Source: Gaiellales bacterium
Lineage (GTDB): Bacteria > Actinomycetota > Thermoleophilia > RBG-16-64-13
Reading direction: 5' to 3'
Assembly: GCA_012719395.1 (NCBI GenBank)
Contig: JAAYAL010000025.1
Coordinates: forward strand, 8,558 to 72,557
Length of the DNA stretch: 64,000 nt
Part shown: positions 211 through 35,776 of the stretch, in pieces
Layout of the letters: each line of letters opens with the position of its first letter
Position numbering within the stretch: position 1 is the stretch's first letter
Position numbers and translations under genes: made by a program
Notes under the pieces: model-generated
The model's database searches: none
The model's input: the letters and a program-made list of their open reading frames with translations, nothing else
Told to the model about the DNA's origin: nothing

Positions 211-2118
211 ATGACCCTTCGGCGCAAGATACTCCTCGGTTTCGGCATCGCCCTGTGCCTGGTGCTGATTGTCCTGACCTGGGCCGTCATCAATCTGGTG
301 CGCCTGGGCAGCGCCAGCGATTCCATCCTGCGCGAGAACTACAAGAGCATCATCGCGGCCGAGGTCATGATCAACGCCATGGAGCGTCAGGACAGCGCCT
401 CTCTGCTCCTGACCCTGGGCTTCGCGGAGGAAGCCGACTCCCAGTTCAGCGCCTTCGAGGCCGAGTTCCTCCGGTCGCTGGCCCGCGCCGCCGACAACAT
501 CACCGTGGAGGGCGAAGCCGGGATCATCGCCCGCATCGACTCCGGCTACCAACGCTATCTCCAGGCCTTCGATGAGCTATCGGACCTGACCGGCTCCTCC
601 ACCACGGCCACGGCCGCCGACTACTACCAGGAAACGGTCCTGCCGCTCTTCACGGAGATCCGCAGCTCCTGCGAGGCGCTGCGCGACCTCAATCAGTCCA
701 CCGCCTACACCGCCAGCGCGCACGCTTCCGGCGTGGCCCGGCGGGCCATCTGGTCCACGCTGGTCGTGGGCCTGGCTGCCGTGGCCGCCGGCTTGCTGTT
801 CAGCCTGCTCATGTCCACCAGCCTCACCCGTCCGCTGCAGGCGCTGCTGGGAGCCACCGCCCGGCTGGCCGACCGTGACTACTCCACCCAGCTTCCGGTC
901 ACCTCCGGTGACGAACTGGGGCGGCTGGCCGCGGGCTTCAACCAGATGGCGGCACGGCTTCACGCCTTCGACGAGATGAACCTCAAGGAAGTGCTGCTGC
1001 AGAAACAGCGCATCGAGACGGTCATCGAGAGTATCGAGGACGGGATCCTGGTGGTGGACAGGGACCTGCGCATCGTCAACCTCAACGGGGCGGCGGCCGG
1101 TGTGTTCGGGGTGGAGAGGCCGCTGGCGTTGGGCCGGCACTTCCTGGAGACGGCGCGGGATGGGCACCTGTTCTCGCTTCTGCGCGAGACGGTGGAGTCG
1201 GGTATGGCCCCAGAACTGGACCCGGACACCGCCATGCTCAGCGTGGGGGCGGGGGAGGCGCGCCGCTACTTCGCCTTCGCCGTCTCCGCCGTGGAGGGCA
1301 CAGGCGGCGGCGTGACCGGCGGCGGCGTGACCGGGAGCGGCGACACCGGGGGAGGTGGCCCGGTTCGGTCGGTGACGGGGGCGGTGCTGCTGCTGCGCGA
1401 CGTGACCCGGCTGAAGGAGCTTGATCGGCTGAAGTCCGATTTCGTCATGACCGCCTCCCACGAGCTGCGGACACCGCTGACCGGGCTGGAGATGAGTGTG
1501 GAGCTGCTCAGGGAGAAGGCGCGTGAGCGCCTGACGGACCAGGAGCGGGAGCTCTTGGAAGCGGCTCATACGGATGTTCTGCGCTTGAAGGCGCTGGTGG
1601 CGGATCTGCTGGACCTGTCGCGGATCGAGGCCGGCCGCATCCAGCTGGAGATGAACGAGGTCGATCTGCGGGGTGTGGTGGAGCAGGTGACCGGGATCTT
1701 CCAGCCGCAGTTCGTGGAGAAGCGCGCCCGGTTGCTGGCCGAGCTTCCGGCGGATCTTCCGTCGGCGCGAGCGGATGCGGAGAAGACCGCCTGGGTGCTC
1801 TCCAATCTGATCTCCAACGCTCTTCGCTATATCGACGAGGGGGGTACGGTGACGGTGGGAGCCGAGCGCAGCGGCAGTGTGCTGAGTGTGAGCGTGGCGG
1901 ACGACGGGGCAGGAATTCCCTACCAATACCAGTCGCGCATCTTCGACAAGTTTGTACAGGTGGCGGGCGACAGCCGGCCGGGACGGACCGGCCTGGGCTT
2001 GGCCATAAGCAGGGAGATTGTGCGGGCGCACGGGGGTACCATCTGGGTGGAATCGGTTCCCGGCGAGGGGAGCAGGTTCAGCTTCACGCTGCCGCTCGCA
2101 CGCGGAGAGGAGGCATAG
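211..2118 (+). CDS. sensor histidine kinase (TM/HAMP-PAS-HisKA-HATPase_c)
   Basis: ORF 82..2118. ATG at 211 is preceded by GGAGG. N-terminal TM segment, phospho-acceptor motif 'ASHELRTPL', ATPase motifs 'GLGLAI' and 'GGTIWVES'. Confidence 0.85.
   Translation: MTLRRKILLGFGIALCLVLIVLTWAVINLVRLGSASDSILRENYKSIIAAEVMINAMERQDSASLLLTLGFAEEADSQFSAFEAEFLRSLARAADNITVEGEAGIIARIDSGYQRYLQAFDELSDLTGSSTTATAADYYQETVLPLFTEIRSSCEALRDLNQSTAYTASAHASGVARRAIWSTLVVGLAAVAAGLLFSLLMSTSLTRPLQALLGATARLADRDYSTQLPVTSGDELGRLAAGFNQMAARLHAFDEMNLKEVLLQKQRIETVIESIEDGILVVDRDLRIVNLNGAAAGVFGVERPLALGRHFLETARDGHLFSLLRETVESGMAPELDPDTAMLSVGAGEARRYFAFAVSAVEGTGGGVTGGGVTGSGDTGGGGPVRSVTGAVLLLRDVTRLKELDRLKSDFVMTASHELRTPLTGLEMSVELLREKARERLTDQERELLEAAHTDVLRLKALVADLLDLSRIEAGRIQLEMNEVDLRGVVEQVTGIFQPQFVEKRARLLAELPADLPSARADAEKTAWVLSNLISNALRYIDEGGTVTVGAERSGSVLSVSVADDGAGIPYQYQSRIFDKFVQVAGDSRPGRTGLGLAISREIVRAHGGTIWVESVPGEGSRFSFTLPLARGEEA
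1303..1347 (+). repeat. 15-bp tandem repeat ggcggcggcgtgacc x2, plus a degenerate third copy, inside the HK linker (encodes GGGVT GGGVT GSGDT)
   Basis: Direct reading of the sequence at 1303-1332. The third unit is degenerate. Confidence 0.5.
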
Positions 2119-2122
2119 CCAC

Positions 2123-2839
2123 ATGGACGCATCCGTGCTCGTGGTGGACGATGAGAAGAACATCCGACTGGCCATCGCGCAGGTGCTATTGGATCTGCAG
2201 TTGACCGTCGACATGGCCATGAACGGCAGAGAAGCCATGGACCGGCTGGCGGAGCGGGCCTACGATCTGGTGTTGCTTGCCCTGCGCATGCCCGGCATCG
2301 ATGGCCTGGAGGTGCTCCGCAGCATCCGGAGCAGTCACCTGCGTACCAACGTGGTGATCATCACCGCCTTCGGGACGGTGGATTCGGCGGTGGAGGCCAT
2401 GAAGCTGGGTGCGGTCGACTTTCTGCAGAAACCGTTCTCCCCCCGGGAGCTGCGGAGCCTGGTGGAGTGTATCCTGGCACGGGAGTCCCTGGCCGCGGAG
2501 GAAGCCGACTCCTACGACGAGCATGTGGAAGTGGCCAAGCGCGCCATCAAGATGCGGGAGTTCGCTCCGGCCACCGATCACCTTCGGCAGGCCATTGCCC
2601 GGGAGCCGGGACGGGCCGAGGCCTTCAATCTGCTGGGCGTCCTGCAGGAGATCGACGGCGATAGGACGGGTGCCTTGTCCAACTACCGCGCTGCGCTTGC
2701 CGTCGACCCCACGTACGAACCGGCGCGCGCCAACCTGCACCGCGTTGTGACCACGGGAGGGGGTGAGGTGTCGCTTGGCGACGGGCACGCCCGGTCGGAT
2801 GCGGGAGTGGCGGAAGAACCCGGCGACCAGGGACGATAG
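2123..2839 (+). CDS. response regulator, REC domain + C-terminal TPR repeats, no DNA-binding domain
   Basis: ATG 2123 follows GGAGAGGAGG. 'VLVVDDE...D...LP..DG' receiver motifs, then TPR-like 'AEAFNLLGVLQEIDGDRTGALSNYRAALAVDP'. Confidence 0.8.
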   Translation: MDASVLVVDDEKNIRLAIAQVLLDLQLTVDMAMNGREAMDRLAERAYDLVLLALRMPGIDGLEVLRSIRSSHLRTNVVIITAFGTVDSAVEAMKLGAVDFLQKPFSPRELRSLVECILARESLAAEEADSYDEHVEVAKRAIKMREFAPATDHLRQAIAREPGRAEAFNLLGVLQEIDGDRTGALSNYRAALAVDPTYEPARANLHRVVTTGGGEVSLGDGHARSDAGVAEEPGDQGR

Positions 2840-2855
2840 GGCGAAAGGGGTCCGC

Positions 2856-3251
2856 ATGGAGGGATGTGAAGCTCGCCGCTGGGTGGAGATAGGGTTCACC
2901 GTGCTGGAGCCGGCGCAGCGCACGGCACGCCTGCCGGAGGACACCACTCGGGTGCCGTACGAGGCGCGGGTGCGCGGTTTTGCCGTCGGGGCCTGCCGTC
3001 TAGGCGATGAGGTGGAGGTGAAGACGCTGACCGGCCGCCGCGTGCGGGGCCGGGTGGTGGCGCTGGATCCCTGCTTCGCCCACGACTTCGGCCGCCCAGT
3101 GCTGGAACTGATCGAGGCAGGCCTGGAGGCGCGGGCCCTCCTGCGGTTGCTAGGGGAATCCCCCTCCGCCGCGGCCGCTTGCGCAAGGGGCGGTGCCATC
3201 GATAGTGAAGCCGCTGCCGCCGACAGGGCCGGCGGAGAGGCCCAGGCATGA
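2856..3251 (+). CDS. ortA: 2-amino-4-ketopentanoate thiolase alpha subunit-like (OrtA family)
   Basis: Small protein directly upstream of and ATGA-overlapping the OrtB-like gene. Resembles OrtA ('VRGRVVALDPCFAHDFGRPVLELIE'). Confidence 0.55.
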   Translation: MEGCEARRWVEIGFTVLEPAQRTARLPEDTTRVPYEARVRGFAVGACRLGDEVEVKTLTGRRVRGRVVALDPCFAHDFGRPVLELIEAGLEARALLRLLGESPSAAAACARGGAIDSEAAAADRAGGEAQA

Positions 3252-4675
3252 GCGCGGGCCTGGACACCGGCTACCAGGCGGTGATGGCGCGCTCCACCCA
3301 GATCCTGCGCAACGCCTCCGGCCTGGACTACGATGACTTCCGCCGTGGCCGCCTTTGCTTCGATTACGAGGGCCTGATGGCTGCCACGGGCTACTCCCTG
3401 GAGCAGGTGGCGGACGTACAGCGGCGCTGCAAGGTGGGAGGGACACCGCTGCTGGAGCTCTCCAACCTTACCCGCCTGGCGCGCAGCCTGGCGCCGGCCG
3501 GCATGGGCGCCCGTATCCTGGTCAAGGACGAGGCGGCCAACGCCTCCGGCAGCTTCAAGGCCCGCCGGGCCAGCCTCTCCGTGCAGGAGTCCAAGCGAGC
3601 CGGCTACCCCGGCGTCATCGCTGCCACTTCAGGCAACTACGGGGCGGCGGTGGCGGCCATGTGCGCCATGCAGGGCCAGTGTTGCATCATCGTGCAGGAG
3701 ACCTTCGACTCGCGGGGGGTGGGGCAGCCGGAGATCGTCGAGAAGGGCCGCGCCTGCGAGGCCTACGGGGCCGAGGTATGGCAGATGACGGTGGGCCCGG
3801 AGTTGTTCTACATGCACCTCCGCCTGCTGGAGGAGAGCGGCTACTTCAACGCCTCGCTGTACACGCCCTTCTCCGTGTCCGGCATTGAGACGCTGGGCTG
3901 GGAGGTGGCGCAGGAGGTGCGGGGGCTCACCGGCCGGCCGCCGGCCGCGGTGGTGGTGACCCACGCCGGCGGCGGCAACGTCACCGGCACTGCCCGCGGC
4001 CTGCGCAAGGCGGGCGCGGGGGAGACTCAGGTCATCGCCGCCAGCGTCGACCTCAGCGGCCTGCATATGGCCAGCGACACCCAGTTCAACCGCAAGAGCT
4101 TCACCACCGGCCACACCGGGTTCGGCATGCCCTTCTTCACCAACCCCGACCGGGCGGACGTGCCCCACAACGCCGCCCGTCCCCTGCGCTACGCCCACCG
4201 CTACGTCACCGTCAACCAGGGCGCCGTCTTCTACACTACGCAGCTGCTGGCCGTCCTGGAGGGGCTGGAGCGCGGCCCGGCCGGCAATACCTCGCTCTGC
4301 GCCGCCTTCAAGCTGGCCCAGGAGATGCCGGCGGATGAGGTCATCGTGGTGCAGGAGACGGAGTACACCGGCGCCGGCAAGCACCCCACTGCCCAACTCA
4401 CCTTCGCTCGCGACAACGGCGTGCGCGTAGTACGCGGCCCGGCCACGCTCGACAAGCCCGGGGAGGTCATCGCCATCCCCGAGTCGCCGGAGCAGGTGGC
4501 CTACGCCGAGATCGACCTGCAGCGGGTGCGGGCCTCCTACCTGCGTGGCCGGTTGGCGGCGGCGGAGGTAGGGGACTATCGTCAACTGAGTGCGGCTGAA
4601 CTAGAGTACCTTGCCGAGGAAACCAACCTCACCCGGGAGAGCTGCCTGGCGTTGTTGAAGAGAGCCGCCGAATGA
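3248..4675 (+). CDS. ortB: 2-amino-4-ketopentanoate thiolase beta subunit-like, PLP-dependent (OrtB family, Trp-synthase-beta fold)
   Basis: 475 aa. Lys motif 'GSFKARRA', 'TSGNYGAAVA', Gly-rich 'HAGGGNVTG'. ATG overlaps the ortA stop (ATGA). Confidence 0.65.
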   Translation: MSAGLDTGYQAVMARSTQILRNASGLDYDDFRRGRLCFDYEGLMAATGYSLEQVADVQRRCKVGGTPLLELSNLTRLARSLAPAGMGARILVKDEAANASGSFKARRASLSVQESKRAGYPGVIAATSGNYGAAVAAMCAMQGQCCIIVQETFDSRGVGQPEIVEKGRACEAYGAEVWQMTVGPELFYMHLRLLEESGYFNASLYTPFSVSGIETLGWEVAQEVRGLTGRPPAAVVVTHAGGGNVTGTARGLRKAGAGETQVIAASVDLSGLHMASDTQFNRKSFTTGHTGFGMPFFTNPDRADVPHNAARPLRYAHRYVTVNQGAVFYTTQLLAVLEGLERGPAGNTSLCAAFKLAQEMPADEVIVVQETEYTGAGKHPTAQLTFARDNGVRVVRGPATLDKPGEVIAIPESPEQVAYAEIDLQRVRASYLRGRLAAAEVGDYRQLSAAELEYLAEETNLTRESCLALLKRAAE

Positions 4676-5883
4676 TGCATGTGCCGCCGCGCAGCCTGCT
4701 CACGGTTGACATTGGCGCCGTGCGCCGGAACGTGCGCCGTCTCCGCTCGCTGCTACGGCCGGGGACCCGCTTCATGGCGGCGCTGAAGGCGGACGCCTAC
4801 GGGCATGGCGCCCTGCCGGTGTGTCAGGCGGTGCTGCAGGCGGGGGGAGATGCTCTGGCGTTGGCCACGACTGAGGAAGCCTTGGAACTGCGCGAGAGCG
4901 GAGTGACCGCGCCGCTGCTGGTCATGGGGCCGGTGTTCTCGCCGGCACAGATGATAGAACTGGCCCGCACCGGCGTGCAGGTTGCCGTGGTCTCGCCGGA
5001 GATGGCGGAGATGCTGCGGCACCTGCCTGAGGATTGCCGGCTGCGTGTCCACCTGAAGATCGACACGGGCATGAACCGCCAGGGACTCCTCCCCTCCGAA
5101 CTTCCCAAGCATCTGGATACCCTGCGTCTGCTGCGGCCGCAGGTGAGGGTGGTGGGCATCATGACCCACTTCGCCAGCGCTTCGGACGAGCCCAACTCGG
5201 TGGAGTGGCAGATGGAGCGCTTCCTGCCCTGCGTGGAGACTATCCGCCGGGACTGGCCGCGGGCCATCGCCCACGCCGCCAACAGCGCCGCCACTATGGA
5301 GCATCCCGCCTCGCACCTGGATCTGGTTCGCTGCGGGGTGGCGGTCTACGGCATGTCGCCTTTCCAGGGGGATCCTCGGGAGGAGGGACTGAAGCCGGCT
5401 CTCAGCTGGACCTCCCGTGTGGCCATGACCAAGCGCGTGCCGTCGGGCGAGGGCGTGGGCTACGGGCTCACCTTCCGCCGGGGCGGGGCGGCCACCACCG
5501 TCGCCCTGGTGCCGGTGGGGTACGCGGACGGGCTGTTCCGTGCCTTGGGCAACCGCGGCCGGGTGCTCATTCGGGGGCGGCGCTACTCCATGGTGGGCCG
5601 GGTGTCCATGGACTCCTTCGCCGTGGACCTGGGGGAGAGCACGGACGTACGGACGGGCGATCGGGTGACGCTCATCGGCCACGACGGATCGGAATCCATC
5701 CGGGCAGAAGAGATGGCGGGCTGGGTGGAGACCATCAACTACGAGATCACCTGCGCCACCGCACTGCGTCGGGCGCAGCGCGTGGTGGTGGACACGGAGT
5801 GGGAGGCGACGGTCACAGGACAGGACGCAGAGTTCGGCTCGCGTCGGATGACGGACGCCACGCGGCGGGACGATGGGAGGTAG
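4672..5883 (+). CDS. alanine/ornithine racemase family PLP enzyme
   Basis: 'AALKADAYGHG' PLP-Lys motif, typical alr fold length. ATG overlaps the ortB stop. Confidence 0.8.
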   Translation: MMHVPPRSLLTVDIGAVRRNVRRLRSLLRPGTRFMAALKADAYGHGALPVCQAVLQAGGDALALATTEEALELRESGVTAPLLVMGPVFSPAQMIELARTGVQVAVVSPEMAEMLRHLPEDCRLRVHLKIDTGMNRQGLLPSELPKHLDTLRLLRPQVRVVGIMTHFASASDEPNSVEWQMERFLPCVETIRRDWPRAIAHAANSAATMEHPASHLDLVRCGVAVYGMSPFQGDPREEGLKPALSWTSRVAMTKRVPSGEGVGYGLTFRRGGAATTVALVPVGYADGLFRALGNRGRVLIRGRRYSMVGRVSMDSFAVDLGESTDVRTGDRVTLIGHDGSESIRAEEMAGWVETINYEITCATALRRAQRVVVDTEWEATVTGQDAEFGSRRMTDATRRDDGR

Positions 5884-5886
5884 CAG

Positions 5887-6438
5887 ATGGACGTCATCAA
5901 CGCCATACAGAAGCGGCGCAGCGTGCGCACCTTTGACTATGAGCGGCCGGTGAATGATGCAGACATCATGAAGATCTTGGAGGCGGGCCGTTTGGCGCCC
6001 TCCTGGAAGAACCATCAGCCGTGGCGATTCGTGGTGGTGCGGTCGGCGGAGGGGCGGGCAGCCATCGCCGACTGCCTCTCAGAGGGCAACCCGGCTCGGA
6101 CTGCCATCCGTCACGCGTCGGCCGTGCTGGTGCTGCTGGGAGTGCCGGAAGAAGGCGAGGTACACCAGGAAAAGTCGTTCTACCTGGTGGATTGCGGCAT
6201 CTCCGGGGAGAACATGTACTTGGAGGCGGTGGAACTGGGCCTCTCCGCCGTATGGGTGTCCCTGCTGGACGGCCCCGGTGTTTGCCGCTCCGTGGGTGCG
6301 CCGGAGGGCTGGGAATGCGTGGGCGTCTTTCCCATCGGGTACGCGTTGCCGGAGGAAGAGGCCAAGCCTCGGCGGCCGCGCCGCCCGCTGGGCGAGGTGG
6401 CCTTCCTGGAGAAGGTTGGGCAGGCTTTCCAGTACTAA
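5887..6438 (+). CDS. nitroreductase family protein
   Basis: 'RRSVRTFDYERPV...ILEAGRLAPSWKNHQPWRF' NAD(P)H nitroreductase signature. Confidence 0.75.
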   Translation: MDVINAIQKRRSVRTFDYERPVNDADIMKILEAGRLAPSWKNHQPWRFVVVRSAEGRAAIADCLSEGNPARTAIRHASAVLVLLGVPEEGEVHQEKSFYLVDCGISGENMYLEAVELGLSAVWVSLLDGPGVCRSVGAPEGWECVGVFPIGYALPEEEAKPRRPRRPLGEVAFLEKVGQAFQY

Positions 6439-6547: not shown

Positions 6548-6905
6548 GGGGGCGACAAGGTTTCGACGGGGCTCAGGTCTGAGTGAGGGTAGCGGGTCGA
6601 GATCCCGGCCGTTCTCGTTAAACAGGCTGGAAACAAACAACTGGCAAGCAAGAACTTGCTCTGGCCGCTTAGCATATAGGCAGCCTGTCGCGCCTCTAGC
6701 TCTCGCCGGAGAGGGCCGCGGCATCATTTAGGCGGGATCACCTGCGTCGAGTGCCGCCGGCCTCGCAGGGAAACCAAGGTGGCTGGTCAGAGGCACCCGG
6801 CTTCCGCGGGGGCCCGAGGCGAGAAATAAAAGCGGAAGCTACACCCGTACGAAGCCTTCTCCAGACGAGTTTCGGACGCGGGTTCAATTCCCGCCGCCTC
6901 CACCA
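6548..6905 (+). ncRNA. ssrA: tmRNA (ssrA)
   Basis: 5' GGGGGCGACAAGGTTTCGACGGGG and 3' GGACGCGGGTTCAATTCCCGCCGCCTCCACCA tRNA-like ends. Internal tag ORF ...GKQELALAA followed by TAG (6670-6672). Confidence 0.85.
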
Positions 6906-6917
6906 TAAGTCTCATAC

Positions 6918-6947
6918 AAAAGCCCTGCTAATCCGGGGCTTTTCTTC
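6918..6947 (+). terminator. rho-independent terminator of ssrA
   Basis: aaaagccc-N10-gggctttt followed by tcttct. Confidence 0.6.
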
Positions 6948-7342
6948 TGGGAATGAGACAACAGGTTCGTAACACACTTGCGCTTTTGCCTTGTTGCAGC
7001 CAGAAATGCAGGTTTGGGGTGTGCACATTGGGGAGACGGGCGTGTGGAAGGGCGATTCTCATAGGATGAGACGGGAGGTGCCCCCGGGGAATGTTGAGGT
7101 TCCCCGGGGGCGAAGGTGCTATTGGTCAGCGACCACAGGGGTGCGCCTCACGGCAGTGGTCTTCTGTCTCGCAGAGAGCACCCAGGTGGGGGAACAAGAT
7201 TGACGAGAATCCGCTTGAAGAACACCCGGTTGGACTGCTTCTTGATGTGGTCGGGCGCTGTCTTGAGAAGTGGCCGGGTGAAATTGGACAGCCTCGTAGG
7301 TGATACTGCCCCCGGGCAGAACACCAAGGAGGAATACCAGCA

Positions 7343-7534
7343 ATGCCGAGAAGACCGAGGCGCAACCATGCACCGGCGTTCAAGGCCAAGGTGGCGCTGG
7401 AAGCCATCAAGGGCGAAGAGCCGTTCATTCAGATCGCTGAACGCTTCGACGTACATCCCAACCAGATCACCACGTGGAAGCGGCGACTTCTCGACGGCGC
7501 TGAGAGTCCTACCCGGCCGTTGGAACAGCCCTGA
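7343..7534 (+). mobile_element. IS3-family transposase OrfA N-terminal remnant (truncated)
   Basis: 'MPRRPRRNHAPAFKAKVALEAIKGEEPFIQIAERFDVHPNQITTWKRRLLDG' matches IS3/IS911 OrfA HTH. Ends prematurely, with no orfB. Confidence 0.6.
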
Positions 7535-7589
7535 CGGCAGTGGGGATTGGCAGGGGTCACACCCCGAAGAGGCCTCTGATGCGCTGATC

Positions 7590-7952
7590 GTGTATCGCAC
7601 ATTTACCGTGGAGCCGTCTGAGATTCTCAAGGGCAAACCCGAATTTGGCACCCCAGTGCAATTCTTCGTGGAGGGCGGCATCGTGGGCGAGGTCAGTGGC
7701 CCGGTGGACGAAGGCGACAAGGTCCTGGTGTTTGGTCAGTATGATCAGACCCTGTATGGGGGTACGTGGCCAAAGGACGCATACCACAGCACACATGGTG
7801 AGTGGTCCATATTCAAGGAAACCGAAACCGGACTGACTAATCTCTTCGTGCTAGGTGGTTTTGAAAGGCAGATGGCCGACAAGGGTTTTGATCGAGTCAC
7901 ACTGGACGATGTGAGGGCAGAGGTGGCTCAGCCCAGCATTACACAGGAGTAA
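7590..7952 (+). CDS. hypothetical protein (orphan; GTG start uncertain)
   Basis: Protein-like composition in the 3' half of ORF 7116..7952. GC about 55%. No recognizable domain. Confidence 0.3.
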   Translation: MYRTFTVEPSEILKGKPEFGTPVQFFVEGGIVGEVSGPVDEGDKVLVFGQYDQTLYGGTWPKDAYHSTHGEWSIFKETETGLTNLFVLGGFERQMADKGFDRVTLDDVRAEVAQPSITQE

Positions 7953-8303
7953 ATCCTCAGGTGATGGATGGGCCCGAGCACTGCGAGGCCCAGTTGTGGG
8001 TGGAATGGAGGCCAACCGGGATTTGAGAGGAGGATTACGAACTGCGGACAACAGAATGGATTCCGCTGAGTCCGAAACCGTGTGGGGCATCCTTTCTGTC
8101 GCTCGGGGAGCCCGGCGGCTGAAGATCTCCGCACTGTGACGCCGTACTGGGTTCACATCTTGCCGAGTGGTAGCGGCAACGTGCCTGCATATGACGATTG
8201 CAATGCTACGTTTGAATGTTGATCATTGCTAAACCGCACATTACAGCCTGTATCCTAGGCCTCATCATTCCAATTCGGATTTGCCTCAAATGCGTACAAA
8301 CGC

Positions 8304-8339
8304 AAAAGCCCATCAGACAACCAAATCTGATGGGCTTTT
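8304..8339. terminator. perfect 14-bp inverted repeat hairpin (bidirectional terminator candidate)
   Basis: aaaagcccatcaga-caaccaaa-tctgatgggctttt, immediately 3' of the minus-strand phosphoesterase gene. Confidence 0.6.
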
Positions 8340-8394
8340 GCTTTGCGACGGTGTCTAAGGGAACGAATAGAGAATGGTTGGTGGCATCCACCGT

Positions 8395-9705
8395 TCAATT
8401 GCTGACGCCTTGGCCGATATCGATCAGGGCACCATCCTCTGCAAAGCTGTAGAGCGTCGCCGTATCCTTTTCGTCCGCAGTAATGACGGTGAACGTGCGG
8501 GCAGCGTCCGGATAGTTGGTATTGTTATCTATCCAAGTTCCCGTGTTGATGTAGTAGGCTCCGTCGCCGATGTTCCGTAATGCCGGTACATGAGTGTGAC
8601 CAAACACGATGATGTCCACAGTTTCATCCGGATTGTCAATATACTGCGCCTTGGCTTGTGCAAAGAAGTAGTCCCAATTCAGCGTGCCGGATACCGCCTC
8701 GATAAAGGTGTTGTGAACCTTGACGTTATTGAGCTTCTGCCGCGCGTCCCATGTGCGCTGAATATGTTGGAACAACACGGGCGCCGATATTGTTCCGTCC
8801 GCCTGCTCGGCCGGGAAGAAATCGAGGTACGTGTAAGCGTCGTCAAAACCCGCGATATGCATATCGAAAATCTTCTCATCAAGACTTTCGTTGGGCGTCA
8901 CTCGCTCTGAAATGCTCTTGAGAACCGAGTAATAGATGTAAGCGCCGTACTGATCCGTATCCGTGTGATCCGGCACATTTGCAACCGCCGGCAGCTCCTT
9001 TGCCACTTCTGGATGGCCTTGCAGCACCCATGTGGCGGCATATCGGGCATAAAAATACCCGGCCGGAAGAATCGTATCGTCGTTGCCGCACAGTTTCGCG
9101 TTGGAAACCGTATCCGGCGCGGAAAACACATCGTAACGATGACCGTGCTCGATCACAATTTCGTTTCTGTCGCCCGTATAGTAGGCGCCAAGTCCTTTGG
9201 CGTCCGTTGCCTGCTCAATGTTCGGGATAGCTTGCTGCAGGATTTCCTTTTCCAGCGTCATATCGTGGTTGCCAATTACGTAGACAAGTTTGATGCCGCT
9301 GTCTGCAACGCTGTTCATCTCGTCGATAACGACCTGGTTATTCGCGATCACTTGCCTGTAAAACTGTTCCTCATCGGTATAGGACGTATAAGAGACGGGC
9401 AAAAACCATGCGTCCAAGAAATCACCCGCAATTACCAGTTCGCGCACATCCTTCGTATTCTGCAACCTCTTCAAGAACTCAACAAGCAGCGCACGGTTGG
9501 TCACTGTTTCACTATAGCTGTCAGCAATGCCCAAATGGAGGTCGCTTATAACGACGATCCTATTTCTTTCAGCGCCTGCTTCCCACAAGGGCGTCGCCGC
9601 CTCCGGCGTACTGGTTTGCGCCGCACATCCTGTGGCGAGCAGCGCGAGAGAGACTACTATGCTGCATGCCAGCATGAGAGACAGAAGCTTTTGTTTCATG
9701 TTCAC
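8395..9705 (-). CDS. calcineurin-like metallophosphoesterase lipoprotein
   Basis: Signal peptide plus lipobox 'LLATGC'. 'GDFLDAW', 'GNHD', 'GHRYD', 'GHTH' phosphoesterase motifs. GC about 48% versus about 68% for the flanks. Confidence 0.75.
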   Translation of the reverse strand: MNMKQKLLSLMLACSIVVSLALLATGCAAQTSTPEAATPLWEAGAERNRIVVISDLHLGIADSYSETVTNRALLVEFLKRLQNTKDVRELVIAGDFLDAWFLPVSYTSYTDEEQFYRQVIANNQVVIDEMNSVADSGIKLVYVIGNHDMTLEKEILQQAIPNIEQATDAKGLGAYYTGDRNEIVIEHGHRYDVFSAPDTVSNAKLCGNDDTILPAGYFYARYAATWVLQGHPEVAKELPAVANVPDHTDTDQYGAYIYYSVLKSISERVTPNESLDEKIFDMHIAGFDDAYTYLDFFPAEQADGTISAPVLFQHIQRTWDARQKLNNVKVHNTFIEAVSGTLNWDYFFAQAKAQYIDNPDETVDIIVFGHTHVPALRNIGDGAYYINTGTWIDNNTNYPDAARTFTVITADEKDTATLYSFAEDGALIDIGQGVSN

Positions 9706-10872
9706 GTGCTCCTAGTATGCCTTGGATGGTTTAGCTGCGCTTTTCGGCCACTCACATTCGCCCGCATTCCAAGCGCGGGGCTTGTGCAAATGAAGACAAG
9801 CGTACCGCATGCCGGGAGGTGTGTTCCGCGCTGGCGTGCGGGGCAAGGGCGTGTACGTTCCGGGCACGGCGTCCTTTCTAGCATATGGCGTCGATGGACA
9901 ATTGGTTGGCGCCCAAGGATACCCGGATGATTTCTATCCCGGCTTGCTGTTCGCGCAAGCGGGGAATAGCTTGCCGGTCGACACACGGAAGCGGGCAACT
10001 CCACCTCAGGGTGTTGGCCTCAAGCTTGGATCGCCGAAGTAGATCCGGCCGGCGGAAGCGCCAAATAGGTTGCTCTTGTATGAGCCGCACCGCCGGCCAC
10101 GACAGCGGCTCGCGATTGGATGGCGGAGTCTGATTCCGTGAGTCTGCTCTGCCGCGTTCCTTCCCGGCAACGTATCGCTGCCGCGCTCTGCTACGGCGCC
10201 GACTCCTCGGTTGCCGATGTGGCGAGGGCCATGGGCTCTCGGAGGGTTCCGTCAACAGTCATTTGCATCGAGCGCGCCCCGCTCTGCCCGGACTCCTGGA
10301 GGAGACGTGATGGGCACCAGACAAACCGACGAGCGGATAGGGAACGTCTACAGTCAGAACGAGGCTCCCGCCGATGTGGAGGCGTTCCCGTCACAGCTTG
10401 CGCTTCGTGGCTTTGTCGGGCTCGCCGTCCTGTTGGAGATGCAAGCCCGCCGAGCGCACGAGGTGCCGCTGCCCTGGCCCCATTGGCTCCGAGGGCTGGG
10501 GGGCAGCGTTCGAGGGGGGTGTTCCTCGCGAGTGCCTTCGCATGCGCTTTGTTGGGAAATGGGGCCCCGGCATTGGCGGACCTGCTCGGCAACATATCGA
10601 CTGAGTCGGGCCCAGATGGTTACCCTCGTCATTCGCGCGGGCACGCTCCACCACTTACCCGACGTGGGAGCCCCTCCAGATGGTTTCGTGTCAACCTTGG
10701 GCAACTTCGATCCGGCTCACGCGGCAGCCGAGTGGGCGCAAGGCACCCAAAGGCTGTTGTGGACGGAGGAGGCCATCAACTGCCGCCTGCCCCGCACCAT
10801 GTGTGCGACACTTCTGCCTCGTATGTCGCACCGTGGATAGAGGTACTGCATCGTGCAACCGGGAGGAAGGCT

Positions 10873-13132
10873 CATGGCAACGCGCCGGGTGACCAAGACG
10901 CGTCAGACTGGAACGGCGAAAGCTCCGAAGGACAGGCCGGGCCGCGCGATCTTGGAGGCGGCGCTGGTGGCAGGCCAGACCTCGCTGGATGAGGCAGAAG
11001 CCAAGGCCCTGTTCGCCGCCTACGGCATCCCCGTGGTGCGGGGGCGTGTGGTGCAGAGCGCCGAGGAAGCCGTGCAGGCTGCAGGGGAACTGGGCTATCC
11101 CGTGGTGCTGAAGGGTGCCTCGCGCGAGGTGCAGCACAAGAGCGATGCGGGCCTGGTGCTACTGGATATTGCCGATGGCGCGGCCACGCGCGGCGGCTAT
11201 GAGACCCTCACACATCGAGCCACAGTCGCGCTGGAGGGCGTCCTGGTGGAGGAGATGATCCGGGGCGGCCGGGAGTTCGTCATTGGCATGAACCGGGACA
11301 CGCAGTTCGGCCCCGTGGTGATGTTCGGCTTGGGCGGGGTGTTGACCGAGGCGCTGCAGGACGTGGTATTTGGTGTGGCGCCGCTGAGCGAGCGCGAGGC
11401 GGAAGAGCTGTTGGACGAGATCCGTGCCGCCAAGCTGCTGGGGGAGTTCCGCGGCTCCCCGGCCGTGGATCGCCGGGTGTTGGTGGAGACACTGATCGCC
11501 GTGGGCCGCATGGCGCTGGACCATCCCGAGATCCGCGAGATTGACGTCAACCCCATGCTGGTGGAGGGTTCCCGACCGGTGGCGGTGGACGCGCTGGTTT
11601 CGCTGAGTGTGCCCGATCTCGAGCCGGCGCCTCGTTTGCCCATAGACCTCAAGGCCCTCGATGCCGTCTTCTACCCCAACAGCGTGGCCGTCATCGGCTC
11701 CTCCAACGACGTGGCCAAGTGGGGCGGTGTCATCACCATCAACATCATCTCTGGTGGCTTCCCAGGACCTGTCTATCCCATCAACCCTCGCTACACGGAT
11801 GTCTTCGGGCGGGCGGCCTACGCCAGTCTGGCCGACGTGCCCCAAGTGCCGGACCTGGCCATCATCGCCGTGCCCGCGGCGGCCGTGAAGCAGGCGGTGG
11901 AGGATTGCGGCCGGGCCGGCGTCAAGGCCGTGGTGGTGGTGAGCGGGGGCTTCTCTGAGTCGGGGCCGGCGGGCGCCAGGCTGGAGCGCGAGGTGGCGGA
12001 GGTGGTGTCGGGCTACGGCATGGCCATGATCGGGCCCAACTGCGTGGGGGTGATGTCCTCCTGGCGGCGCTTCTACGGGACGGGTGGCGTCATTACGCAG
12101 CCGGGGCCGGGTCCGGCCGGCTTCCTCTCGCACTCGGGGAACATGGGCGTGCAGCTCATGGCCTCGGCCGAGGAGCGAAGCGGGGGCGTGGGCAAGTTTG
12201 CCGGCATAGGCAACGAGGCGCTGTACACCGCCACTGACCTGCTGGAGTACTTCTGCGACGACCCGCAGACCGGCCTCATTCTGGACTACGTGGAGGGCTT
12301 GGACGACGGTCGCCGCTTCATGGAGGCGGCACGGCGGGCGGCGCTGAAGAAACCACTGATAGTGCTGCGTGGCGGCGCCAGCGAGTACGGGGCCAAGGCC
12401 GCCGCCTCGCACACCGGGGCCATGGCCGGCTCGCAGCGGGTGTTCGAGGCGGTGGTGCGGCAGTGCGGCGTCATCGCCACCACCGATCCCGATGAGTTCA
12501 TCGACCTGGCCTTCGCCCTCTCCTACCTGCCGCTGCCCAAGGGCCGCCGCGTGGCCGTGGTGACCATGGGCGGCGGCTGGGGCGTGGTGGCGGCGGATGA
12601 GATCTCCCGCAGCGGGCTGGAGCTGGCCGAGCTTCCGCCCAACGTTATCGCCGACATCGACGCCGTGCTCCCGCCCTACTGGAGCCGCAGCAACCCCGTG
12701 GACCTGGTGGGCAGCATCAAGGAGGGGGCGCCGGAGCGGGCCATCGAGACGGTGGTGCGTTCCGAGGCTGTGGATGCCGTGGTCGTTCTGGGCGTGATCG
12801 GCATGGTGACCTCGCCGCTGCGGGTCATCGACGAGGTCAAGCGCGTGCAGGAGCGTTCCGGCCTCTACGTGGGCGCCAACCTGCCAGACCCTGAGAAGTA
12901 TCGCTTCCGCGAAGGCGACTTCGTCAAGTGGGTGGCCGAGCTCATGCGCGCCTACCGCAAGCCCATCGTCAATGTCTCCGTGCGGCCCATTCAGCGCGCG
13001 GTCTTCGGTGAGGGCGGGCCCTTTGCCACGGTGGTGTTGCCCTCGCCCCTGCGCTCCGTGCGGGTGCTGAGTCACATGGCCACCTACCACGCCTTTCTAG
13101 AACGTCAGGGCGTGGCGCGGCCGGGTGAGTGA
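10873..13132 (+). CDS. acd: acetyl-CoA synthetase (ADP-forming), fused ATP-grasp (N-terminal) + CoA-binding/ligase-CoA domains
   Basis: ATG 10873 after GGGAGGAAGG. N-terminal ATP-grasp_5-like region, then 'VAVIGSS...GPNCVG' CoA-binding and Succ_CoA_lig-like regions. Confidence 0.85.
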
Positions 13133-13140
13133 GGGATGGC

Positions 13141-14463
13141 ATGAGTGAGGAGATCGACGGCCGCGGTTGGCCGCTCCTGGACTGGGCGCCCGCCCCGGCT
13201 CCGGAAGTGGTGGCGCGGGGCATCCGGTCGGCGGGGGGAAGGGTCACCTTCGCCTGCTTCATGGAAATGGCGCTCACTCACCCGGCTGTCGGCTACTACA
13301 CGCAGGCGCGCTCGCCGTTGGGCGCCGCCGGTGACTTCATCACCGTGCCGCAGAGGGTCCCGTTCTTCAATCGAGTCTTGGGCCGCCTCTTGGCCGAGTT
13401 GCTGGGAGGCGCAGCGGCGTTGCCGACGGCAGGCGGTGAGGCGCGTCTCGTGGAGGTGGGAGCGGGAGAGGGGCACATGGCCGCCGGCCTGCTCGACTTC
13501 TTTGAGGACGAGGCCCCTGCCTTGAAAGAGATTCTTCGCTGCCAGCTGGTGGAGCCGGGATCGTATCTGCGTGAGGCGCAGCGTGCGAGGTTGGCGCAGG
13601 CTCAATCCCGGAGCTGGCGGGTGGAATGGCCGCAGGTGGGGCAATCGCCGGCATCGGGCCACGATGCACGGGCGGAGCTTCTGCCCCCAGGAGGCCCCGG
13701 AGTGGTGGTGACCAACGAGTTGCTGGATGCGCTCCCCGTTCACCTGCTTCATGTGGGCGACGAAGTGCCGCTCGAAGCCTGGGTGCAGCTTCAGGAAGGG
13801 GAATCGGGACCGGAAGTGGCCGTGGTATGGCGTGAGCCTTGCGCGGCGGCGTCGGCCGAGCTGCAGGCGGTGCTGGAGCAGACGGGCCGGCCCGACCCTC
13901 GGTCCCTCAGCCGCGACGGGTTCATCGAGCTCCGTCCGGCCGTGGGTGACTTCTTGGAAGGCGCCGCTCGGAGACTGGGCGCGGGCTTCGTCGTCACCAT
14001 CGACTACGGCGCCTGGCGTGGCCACCCGTACTCAGCCGCGTCCACCGAGGCGCGGCCCGCCGACGCCTGGACGGACGGCCGGGAGCCGGCGGATACCCAA
14101 GCCGGCACCTGTCGGCCACAGCTCCACGAGCTCACTCTGCGCGGTTATTTCCGGCACGAGCGCCGCTTCGATCCCCTCTCTCACGCGGGCCGGCAGGACC
14201 TGACCGCGGACGTGGATTTCGCCGCGCTCGACTTCCACGGCCGGCGACTCGGCTTCCAGACACTGCTCTTCCTGGACCTTGCCTCCTTCCTTGCGGCGGG
14301 TGGAGCGGCTACCGAAGCTGACCGGCTGCGAAGCTTGGTGGGTGGGGAGGATGCGCTGGAGGTGGACGCATCGGCATCGTTGTTGGAGGCCCTGCTTGAC
14401 CCTGCAGACGTGGGGGGGTTGTTCAAGGTGATGGTGCAGGTCCGCGAAGAAGCGGATTTGTGA
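13141..14463 (+). CDS. class I SAM-dependent methyltransferase, DUF185/MidA (NDUFAF7-like)
   Basis: 'FACFMEMALTHPAVGYYT...FITVP' and 'LVEVGAGEG' motifs. Start overlaps or abuts the acd stop. Confidence 0.75.
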   Translation: MSEEIDGRGWPLLDWAPAPAPEVVARGIRSAGGRVTFACFMEMALTHPAVGYYTQARSPLGAAGDFITVPQRVPFFNRVLGRLLAELLGGAAALPTAGGEARLVEVGAGEGHMAAGLLDFFEDEAPALKEILRCQLVEPGSYLREAQRARLAQAQSRSWRVEWPQVGQSPASGHDARAELLPPGGPGVVVTNELLDALPVHLLHVGDEVPLEAWVQLQEGESGPEVAVVWREPCAAASAELQAVLEQTGRPDPRSLSRDGFIELRPAVGDFLEGAARRLGAGFVVTIDYGAWRGHPYSAASTEARPADAWTDGREPADTQAGTCRPQLHELTLRGYFRHERRFDPLSHAGRQDLTADVDFAALDFHGRRLGFQTLLFLDLASFLAAGGAATEADRLRSLVGGEDALEVDASASLLEALLDPADVGGLFKVMVQVREEADL

Positions 14464-30932: not shown

Positions 30933-31006
30933 TCGGGGCGCCGGGATTTGAACCCGGGACCTCAGCGTCCCGAACGCTGCGCGCTACCAGGCTGCGCTAC
31001 GCCCCG
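30933..31006 (-). tRNA. tRNA-Pro (anticodon CGG)
   Basis: Cloverleaf folded by hand: acceptor CGGGGCG/CGCCCCG, anticodon loop TTCGGGA, T-loop TTCAAAT. Confidence 0.85.
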
Positions 31007-35175: not shown

Positions 35176-35249
35176 CGGGACGTGGCGCAGCCTGGTAGCG
35201 CATCTGCTTTGGGAGCAGAGGGTCGGAGGTTCAAATCCTCTCGTCCCGA
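35176..35249 (+). tRNA. tRNA-Pro (anticodon TGG)
   Basis: Acceptor CGGGACG/CGTCCCG, anticodon loop TTTGGGA. Confidence 0.85.
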
Positions 35250-35279
35250 CCTTGAAGCCGGGGCGGGAGTGTGTAGCAG

Positions 35280-35352
35280 GCGGGCGTAGCTCAGTTGGCA
35301 GAGCGTCGGCCTTCCAAGCCGTTTGTCGCGGGTTCGATTCCCGTCGCCCGCT
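35280..35352 (+). tRNA. tRNA-Gly (anticodon TCC)
   Basis: Acceptor GCGGGCG/CGCCCGC, anticodon loop CTTCCAA, T-loop TTCGATT. Confidence 0.8.
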
Positions 35353-35387
35353 CTATCGGCCCGCTCCAGATGGCGCAGGTCGTGCGT

Positions 35388-35461
<74 letters not shown>

Positions 35462-35524
35462 CTATGCTTTAGGCGGTTGGATGCGCCGGAGAAGCCACAG
35501 TCGGCGTGGAGAGGTTCGTTTCGC

Positions 35525-35598
35525 GGTGAAGGTAGCTCAGCTGGCAGAGCACTGGGTTGTGGCCCCAGCGGTCGGGGGTTCAAATCCCCTCCTTCACC
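35525..35598 (+). tRNA. tRNA-His (anticodon GTG), includes G-1
   Basis: G-1:C73, acceptor GTGAAGG/CCTTCAC, anticodon loop TTGTGGC. Confidence 0.85.
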
Positions 35599-35696
35599 CC
35601 TTGTGTGGGGGCGGCCCGAACCCGGGAGGGTCCGGGCCGCCCCCACAGCAGTGCCCCGGCCGTTGACGCGGCCACCATGCAACTCGAGCCAACGTG

Positions 35697-35776
35697 CGGG
35701 TGTGGCGGAATGGCAGACGCGCATGCCTTAGGAGCATGTGTCTTTGACGTGGAGGTTCGAGTCCTCTCACCCGCAC
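35697..35776 (+). tRNA. tRNA-Leu (anticodon TAG), type II with variable arm
   Basis: Acceptor GCGGGTG/CACCCGC, anticodon loop CTTAGGA, extra arm. Confidence 0.8.

Follow-up and report, generated by a model that had tools for sequence, protein, structure and literature searches.

The thiolase formed by OrtA and OrtB, which depends on pyridoxal 5'-phosphate (PLP) and coenzyme A (CoA), has to our knowledge been described solely as the final step of ornithine fermentation in clostridia. What does it do, then, in a member of the Actinomycetota, where ortA and ortB stand directly behind the genes of a two-component system? The question is raised by a 64,000-nt stretch of DNA (hereafter the window; ~68% GC) of a 141-kb contig, taken from a metagenome-assembled genome (MAG) that GenBank labels 'Gaiellales bacterium'. 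We favor, at a probability of about 0.6, the reading that two unrelated modules abut in this locus: a histidine kinase (HK) and response regulator (RR) pair linked to Trk potassium-uptake genes, and a catabolic ortA-ortB-alr(-nitroreductase) unit at 2856-6438.

Gene Organization of the Locus

The original prediction described a single operon of five co-oriented genes, and these five, read from the sequence, do stand on the plus strand at the coordinates it gave: HK (635 aa, 211-2118; ATG at 211, stop at 2116-2118), an RR that joins a receiver domain to a TPR-like C-terminal region (238 aa, 2123-2839; ATG at 2123, stop at 2837-2839), ortA (131 aa, 2856-3251; ATG at 2856, ribosome-binding site GAAAGGGG), ortB (475 aa, 3248-4675) and a racemase gene, here called alr (403 aa, 4672-5883; stop at 5881-5883). 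ortB overlaps ortA at 3248-3251 and alr overlaps ortB at 4672-4675, in both cases by an ATGA. A sixth plus-strand gene, coding for a nitroreductase-family flavoprotein (183 aa, 5887-6438), follows alr after 3 nt and is part of the same gene string, in which the successive distances from HK to the nitroreductase-family gene are 4, 16, -4, -4 and 3 nt. At least four samples (L001-L004 in our numbering of loci; anaerobic-digester-type metagenomes) gave the identical gene order in independent assemblies. An assembly artifact at the RR/ortA junction was rejected on the agreement of these four independent assemblies.

A scan for promoters and terminators found no sigma-70-like promoter and predicted no terminator between RR and ortA, terminator-like sites being no more common than in shuffled sequences; such a scan is uninformative for a high-GC organism. 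An Rfam search of the window and of four related loci revealed no riboswitch or leader near ortA, the only matches being a transfer-messenger RNA (tmRNA) and tRNAs. The GenBank products of 211-6438 are NLT35000-NLT35004. Among these, ortA seems to have been left unannotated: RR (NLT35001) and OrtB (NLT35002) are consecutive and no accession was found for the OrtA product, and OrtB itself is named merely 'PLP-dependent lyase/thiolase'.

Identity of OrtA, OrtB and the Racemase

Family assignments were made with the curated equivalog cut-offs of NCBIfam together with Pfam profile searches. By these searches, OrtA and OrtB are true members of the families to which they had been ascribed. OrtA, the small subunit of the thiolase, scores 97 bits against NF040739 (cut-off 70) and matches PF22010 at 4.5e-28; its domain covers residues 7-95 and is followed by a species-specific tail rich in Ala and Gly. 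OrtB, the PLP-dependent catalytic subunit of fold type II, reaches 744 bits against NF040741 (cut-off 550) and matches PALP at 7e-43. The alternative that the 475-aa protein is a threonine synthase, the next best family, is excluded by a score of 59 bits.

In OrtB, K104 (within SGSFKARR), the loop T127-S128-G129-N130 and the stretch H239-A240-G241-G242-G243-N244 are invariant across 26 aligned homologues; from general knowledge of fold-type II enzymes, we take these motifs to bind PLP and substrate. Of the 230 columns with a conservation of 90% or more in canonical OrtB, the clade to which the window OrtB belongs retains 217 (94%), and for that reason its chemistry is very probably that of the canonical enzyme. 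No solved structure of OrtA or OrtB was found; the solved proteins nearest to OrtB are of fold type II, for example cystathionine beta-synthase (1e-8). The predicted activity of the window OrtAB is a CoA-dependent cleavage of (2R)-2-amino-4-oxopentanoate.

The gene after ortB was thought to encode a racemase of the alanine/ornithine type. It does encode a member of the alanine racemase family, and more specifically an Alr (TIGR00492, 321 bits; cut-off 168). Ornithine racemase Orr was considered and rejected, as the protein has no match to NF040742, a model that recognizes the Romboutsia Orr at 540 bits. The closest solved relative is the Alr of M. tuberculosis (1.4e-65), with which the catalytic Lys and Tyr motifs align, and the protein is nearer to genuine Alr than to broad-spectrum or lysine racemases. 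The start-stop overlap of ortB and alr probably reflects translational coupling. In canonical clusters of the Halanaerobiales type (L050, L062, L063, L095), an Alr-family racemase 33-38% identical to the window Alr takes the place of Orr after oraE, and may act there as a non-orthologous ornithine racemase.

The protein encoded by the sixth gene matches PF00881 at 1.5e-28 and lies under every NCBIfam cut-off; its relatives in the PDB all come from structural genomics. A gene of this family occupies the same position after alr in the related locus L007 (58% identity).

Absence of Ornithine-Pathway Genes from the Neighborhood

To search for the other ornithine-pathway genes by tblastn, we used Ord, OraS, OraE, Or-4 and Orr from a canonical Romboutsia locus (L075), each verified with NCBIfam. 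Over the 74 kb covered, made up of the 64-kb window and 10 kb upstream of it taken from a longer contig, none of ord, oraS, oraE, or-4 and orr has a match. The original prediction would have been overturned by oraSE and ord lying just beyond the upstream edge; the 10 kb there is occupied instead by trkA and trkH genes, the gene for a 197-aa protein (U197) and other unrelated genes.

How unusual this arrangement is can be judged from a survey of 117 loci around OrtB homologues, including 28 metagenome and 80 GTDB genome loci, which favors query-like sequences and in which stand-alone loci are probably over-represented. Layouts were counted in the 84 loci that have a near-full OrtB and enough flank. 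The canonical order Ord-OrtA-OrtB-OraS-OraE-Or-4(-Orr) was found in 60 of them, OraSE without Ord in eight, Ord only in one and neither in 15. A neighbor-joining tree groups the window OrtB clade with other stand-alone ortAB, outside the large canonical group. A separate OrtB clade is formed by metagenome contigs of ~27% GC (L016-L031), which carry ortA-ortB-oraS-oraE and no ord within 10 kb. In the literature searched, we found no description of stand-alone ortAB lacking oraSE and ord, or of an ortAB-alr unit.

The Conserved Unit Starts at ortA

The window OrtB clade, delimited at 71% identity or more, comprises L124 (93% identical to the window OrtB), L007 (78%), and L009, L038, L039, L040 and L034 (72-76%); L119 stands at 74%. 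Wherever the flank of a clade relative is long enough, ortB is followed by an Alr gene at a distance of no more than about 2 kb; L119 is the exception. No ornithine gene accompanies ortAB in L124, L007, L009, L038, L039, L040, L034 or L119, within a flank of up to 10 kb (~1 kb in L124).

The upstream neighbor of ortA is far less constant. It is a divergent glyoxalase gene in L124, and an M28 peptidase gene lies upstream of ortA in L009, L119 and L118 (on the contig that also carries L038); L039 and L040 likewise show matches to this peptidase upstream of ortA. In L007, the order is Acd-Ald-OrtA-OrtB-Alr-nitroreductase-ssrA, followed by an Acd-Methyltransf_28 pair syntenic with 10874-14463 of the window. 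The L007 Ald is a true alanine dehydrogenase (TIGR00518, 535 bits; cut-off 392). Because the 5' neighbor of ortA varies by lineage while the downstream order alr-nitroreductase-ssrA stays stable, ortA marks the start of the conserved unit, which is ortA-ortB-alr(-nitroreductase).

The Two-Component Pair and the Trk Genes

The Pfam domains of HK are 4HB_MCP, HAMP, PAS, HisKA and HATPase_c. RR combines a Response_reg domain (1.2e-30) with sub-threshold TPR matches, and TPR matches are found among the precomputed Pfam annotations of its homologues. No DNA-binding output domain was found over the 238 aa of RR, where Response_reg and the TPR-like matches are the sole assignments. A receiver joined to a TPR-like protein-interaction domain most likely acts on proteins and not on a promoter.

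The family of RR is large, with more than 4600 homologues of ~230 aa at 50-64% identity in Planctomycetota, Hydrogenedentes, Cloacimonadota and other phyla. Linkage of these homologues to trk genes outside this organism was examined in three contexts from other phyla (L120, L121, L122), and all three read HK-RR-TrkA_N-TrkA-TrkH. Over its full length, the window HK shares 44-49% identity with the HKs of L120 and L121, and RR is 53-64% identical to the trk-linked RRs. In the Gaiellales MAG, the order is TrkA_N-99aa-TrkA-44aa-TrkH-U197-HK-RR, with all genes co-oriented and gaps of -4 to 31 nt (L001 3403-9592 together with window 211-2839). U197, the last gene product before HK in this string, has a signal peptide and, at its C-terminus, a hydrophobic tail, and no Pfam or NCBIfam match. 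The 3' end of its gene opens the window on the plus strand (3-179, stop TGA at 177-179), where the L001 product aligns by tblastn at 100% over 3-176. Given the trk-linked orthologues in other phyla and the contiguity with trk genes here, the pair is, by orthology and position, the signaling pair of the Trk potassium-uptake genes and distinct from the thiolase unit.

The earlier proposal that ortAB is under direct two-component control is not supported. An HK-RR-ortAB neighborhood that was to be sought in other genomes does not recur: none of the ortAB-alr relatives has HK-RR upstream, even at an OrtB identity of 93%. Since RR and ortA stand 16 nt apart, with no predicted terminator between them, ortAB may nevertheless be co-transcribed with HK-RR through read-through, which would then be a lineage-specific accident of gene order. 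More generally, the locus is a caution that tight gene packing alone does not demonstrate regulatory coupling.

The set of HK (HAMP-PAS), RR (receiver and TPR), TrkA_N, TrkA and TrkH is kept across distant phyla including Hydrogenedentes. Such a conserved five-gene module suggests that phosphorylation controls potassium uptake through Trk at the post-translational level. No description of a trk-linked regulator of the receiver-TPR type was found in the literature searched.

Stand-Alone ortAB Operons in Other Lineages

Loci in which ortAB stands without oraSE and ord are not restricted to the simple unit of the window. A recurrent operon contains genes for a helix-turn-helix (HTH)-cupin protein, OrtA, OrtB, an Amidohydro_3 protein, an M28 peptidase, a protein called unk278, a SnoaL protein and a protein called unk201, together with an ABC importer of the Opp or Liv type. 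An example is L123 (4639-12069) from a Desulfobacterales MAG (CP070746.1), and further copies occur in L009, L038, L039, L040, L119, L113, L013, L017 and L024. Its carriers are Actinomycetota, Desulfobacterales, Christensenella and other MAGs. The operon contains no ornithine-pathway gene, and its regulator is the PuuR-like HTH-cupin protein. The proteins unk278 and unk201 are related to each other, share conserved Cys, His and Glu residues and belong to no Pfam family; the model of unk278 (pLDDT 94) gives weak fold matches, at E of 0.003 or above, to the ligand-binding proteins V4R, Bet3 and H-NOX. In the absence of any Pfam or NCBIfam family, no enzymatic assignment could be given to the unknown partner proteins.

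In the neighbor-joining tree, the window OrtB is sister to the OrtB of the Actinomycetota operons of this type, which also have alr downstream. None of the six partner families of the recurrent operon was found in the window or in L007.

Stand-alone ortAB has other company elsewhere. A class-III aminotransferase gene follows ortB directly in L071 (11423-12763, Neobacillus niacini) and in L054 (8429-12776, Sedimentibacter MAG), and in loci of this type the 4-oxo group might be supplied by a transaminase in place of Ord. L054 also has a gene of the fumarylacetoacetate hydrolase family before ortAB and one for an AgcS-type carrier after it. In L072, from a Thermovirgaceae MAG, ortAB is followed by genes for Alr and for DctQ, a component of a TRAP transporter.

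Proposed Function and Rival Explanations

The canonical ornithine pathway ends in alanine and acetyl-CoA (PMC8803604). In the pathway that we propose for the window, OrtAB would cleave (2R)-2-amino-4-oxopentanoate, or another 2-amino-4-oxo acid much like it, to acetyl-CoA and D-alanine, which Alr would convert to L-alanine. L-alanine could then be deaminated to pyruvate and ammonia, as by Ald in L007, and acetyl-CoA could be turned into acetate with a gain of ATP through an Acd-type synthetase. The reading is a catabolic one because L007 places Acd and alanine dehydrogenase directly upstream of ortAB-alr. Genes for Ald also lie beside some canonical ornithine clusters (L057, L058, L063, L095), which agrees with alanine being a product to dispose of. 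We infer the direction of flux, as well as the identity and the source of the substrate.

Several points weigh against this proposal. The enzyme that makes 2-amino-4-oxopentanoate is not seen within the 74 kb, leaving the pathway as drawn without a visible input, and no Ald was found in the window. The clade carries 13 changes at otherwise conserved OrtB positions, among them W299N, Q138M and E332Q; W299N sits inside an insertion specific to OrtB, and such substitutions could alter the acyl pocket. The conserved nitroreductase-family gene has no explained role in the module. Finally, HK, RR and ortA are tightly packed with no predicted terminator, and co-expression of the two modules is possible.

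Two rival explanations are less probable. One is that the organism performs classical ornithine fermentation with orr, oraSE, or-4 and ord elsewhere in its genome, ortAB-alr being a separate last part of the pathway. In its favor, OrtB scores as the ornithine-pathway equivalog and retains nearly all canonical-conserved columns, and partial clusters do occur, with ord-ortAB lacking oraSE in L069 and ortAB-oraSE lacking ord in L016-L031. However, ord and oraSE lie directly beside ortAB in 60 of the 84 loci counted, the clade as a whole shows no such genes in the flanks covered, the 74 kb of this organism included, and the tree places it with stand-alone ortAB; we therefore regard a split pathway as rather unlikely. 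The other explanation keeps the chemistry and changes the input: the keto-amino acid would be taken up directly or derive from an imported peptide-like or N-acylated compound, independently of ornithine, and in that case the racemase may convert the substrate (L- to D-keto-amino acid) instead of the product. The recurrent Amidohydro_3/M28/SnoaL operon with its importer, present in several phyla, points in this direction, as do the sister position of the window OrtB to its Actinomycetota representatives and the aminotransferase or Alr-DctQ genes near other stand-alone ortAB. Against it stand the lack of the partner genes in both the window and L007, the resemblance of the racemase to an ordinary Alr, and partner proteins that lack enzymatic assignments and, for unk278, have weak fold matches. 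A change of input is tentative on balance, and so is the corollary that the Gaiellales locus represents a reduced ornithine-independent pathway, its substrate coming from the compound handled by the recurrent operon and thiolase and Alr being sufficient; both are possible without being the likelier outcome.

Two further explanations were part of the original prediction, and both appear improbable. OrtAB could work in the biosynthetic direction, condensing acetyl-CoA with D-alanine supplied by Alr into 2-amino-4-oxopentanoate for some further product. The overlap of the racemase start with the ortB stop and the lack of a nearby enzyme producing this keto-amino acid would suit such a role, but no pulling reaction is encoded beside the genes and the L007 neighbors, an alanine dehydrogenase and an ADP-forming acyl-CoA synthetase, are catabolic. 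Moreover, thiolase-type equilibria favor the thiolytic cleavage of beta-dicarbonyl-like systems. The earlier regulatory model, in which HK-RR would sense an amino acid-related signal and specifically control ortAB-alr, draws on the co-orientation of the genes, their gaps of 4 and 16 nt and the lack of a predicted terminator; unrelated RR-HK pairs also lie 4-5 kb upstream of the canonical clusters L103, L104 and L116. In light of the comparisons, this model is for the most part refuted: a DNA-binding domain is missing from RR, the pair has trk-linked orthologues and directly follows trk genes here, and its junction with ortA is absent in every relative, even in L124.

The Region Downstream of the Unit

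The gene string is followed by ssrA (6548-6905, plus strand), which encodes the tmRNA (Rfam RF00023, 173 bits; also found by ARAGORN) with the tag peptide GKQELALAA. It stands at the same position in L007 and marks the downstream end of the conserved block. Beyond it, an island at 6906-10500 drops to a GC content of 0.51-0.60, compared with ~0.68 in its flanks. This island contains an open reading frame on the minus strand (8395-9705) with a Metallophos match, hence a putative metallophosphoesterase, and, judged from translation alone, a transposase-like fragment at ~7343-7534. It is consistent with an element integrated at ssrA; att repeats around it were considered and rejected, as no flanking direct repeat was found. 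L007 has a different gene at this position, and the island is not part of the ortAB module.

The acd gene, placed near the operon by the original prediction with a start at 10873, is indeed nearby, but its ATG is at 10874 (10874-13132, plus strand), with a ribosome-binding site. The product has the ATP-grasp_5, CoA_binding and Succ_CoA_lig domains of an ADP-forming acyl-CoA synthetase of the Acd type, lies under the equivalog cut-offs of NCBIfam and shares 75% identity with its L007 counterpart, which occupies the corresponding place. That it could yield ATP from acetyl-CoA, as had been suggested, is consistent with the presence of such a synthetase nearby and of a paralogue directly upstream of ald-ortAB in L007. 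A Methyltransf_28 gene (13129-14463) comes after acd.

The remainder of the window is housekeeping in nature, with genes for cell-wall hydrolases, an AddA-like helicase-nuclease and a PBP2-type transpeptidase, with tig, clpX, lon, valS, mreB, rodA and obg, an RNase E/G-family gene and a proA-like gene. Five plus-strand tRNA genes are clustered at 35176-35775, upstream of the trigger factor gene, and a single minus-strand tRNA gene lies at 30933-31006.

Comparison with Known Systems

The ortAB-alr unit and the wider ortAB operons, all without aminomutase or dehydrogenase, occur in Actinomycetota, Desulfobacterota, Synergistota and other phyla. Since these stand-alone units are conserved, automatic pipelines that infer 'ornithine fermentation' from nothing but ortAB will misannotate the lineages that carry them. 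For the same reason, it is probable that 2-amino-4-oxo acids have a second, uncharacterized origin or that the rare PLP/CoA chemistry of this thiolase serves a second purpose.

Among known enzymes, 2-amino-3-ketobutyrate CoA ligase (Kbl) resembles OrtAB in that it uses PLP and CoA to split a C-C bond of a keto-amino acid, which yields acetyl-CoA and a smaller amino acid. Kbl is nevertheless not homologous to OrtB: it is a single-subunit enzyme of PLP fold type I that acts on a 3-keto substrate and releases glycine, whereas OrtAB acts on a 4-keto substrate and releases D-alanine. The HK-RR pair recalls KdpD/KdpE, a histidine kinase and response regulator likewise encoded with a potassium transporter. 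It differs in that the transporter is here Trk and not Kdp, that RR bears a TPR-like part instead of a DNA-binding output and that HK is built of 4HB, HAMP and PAS domains.

Like the recurrent stand-alone operon exemplified by L123, the window carries ortAB without ornithine genes, but it has only ortAB, alr and the nitroreductase-family gene. The cluster of Clostridium sticklandii and Clostridioides difficile (orr, oraS, oraE, or-4, ord, ortA, ortB) shares with the window the adjacent and overlapping ortA and ortB, the equivalog scores of their products and the expected reaction products, acetyl-CoA and alanine (PMC8803604). In the Gaiellales locus, by contrast, none of ord, oraS, oraE, or-4 and orr lies within the 74 kb, Alr and not Orr follows ortB, the OrtB clade branches outside the large canonical group, and the host is labeled in GenBank as a member of the Gaiellales (Actinomycetota) and not of the Clostridia.

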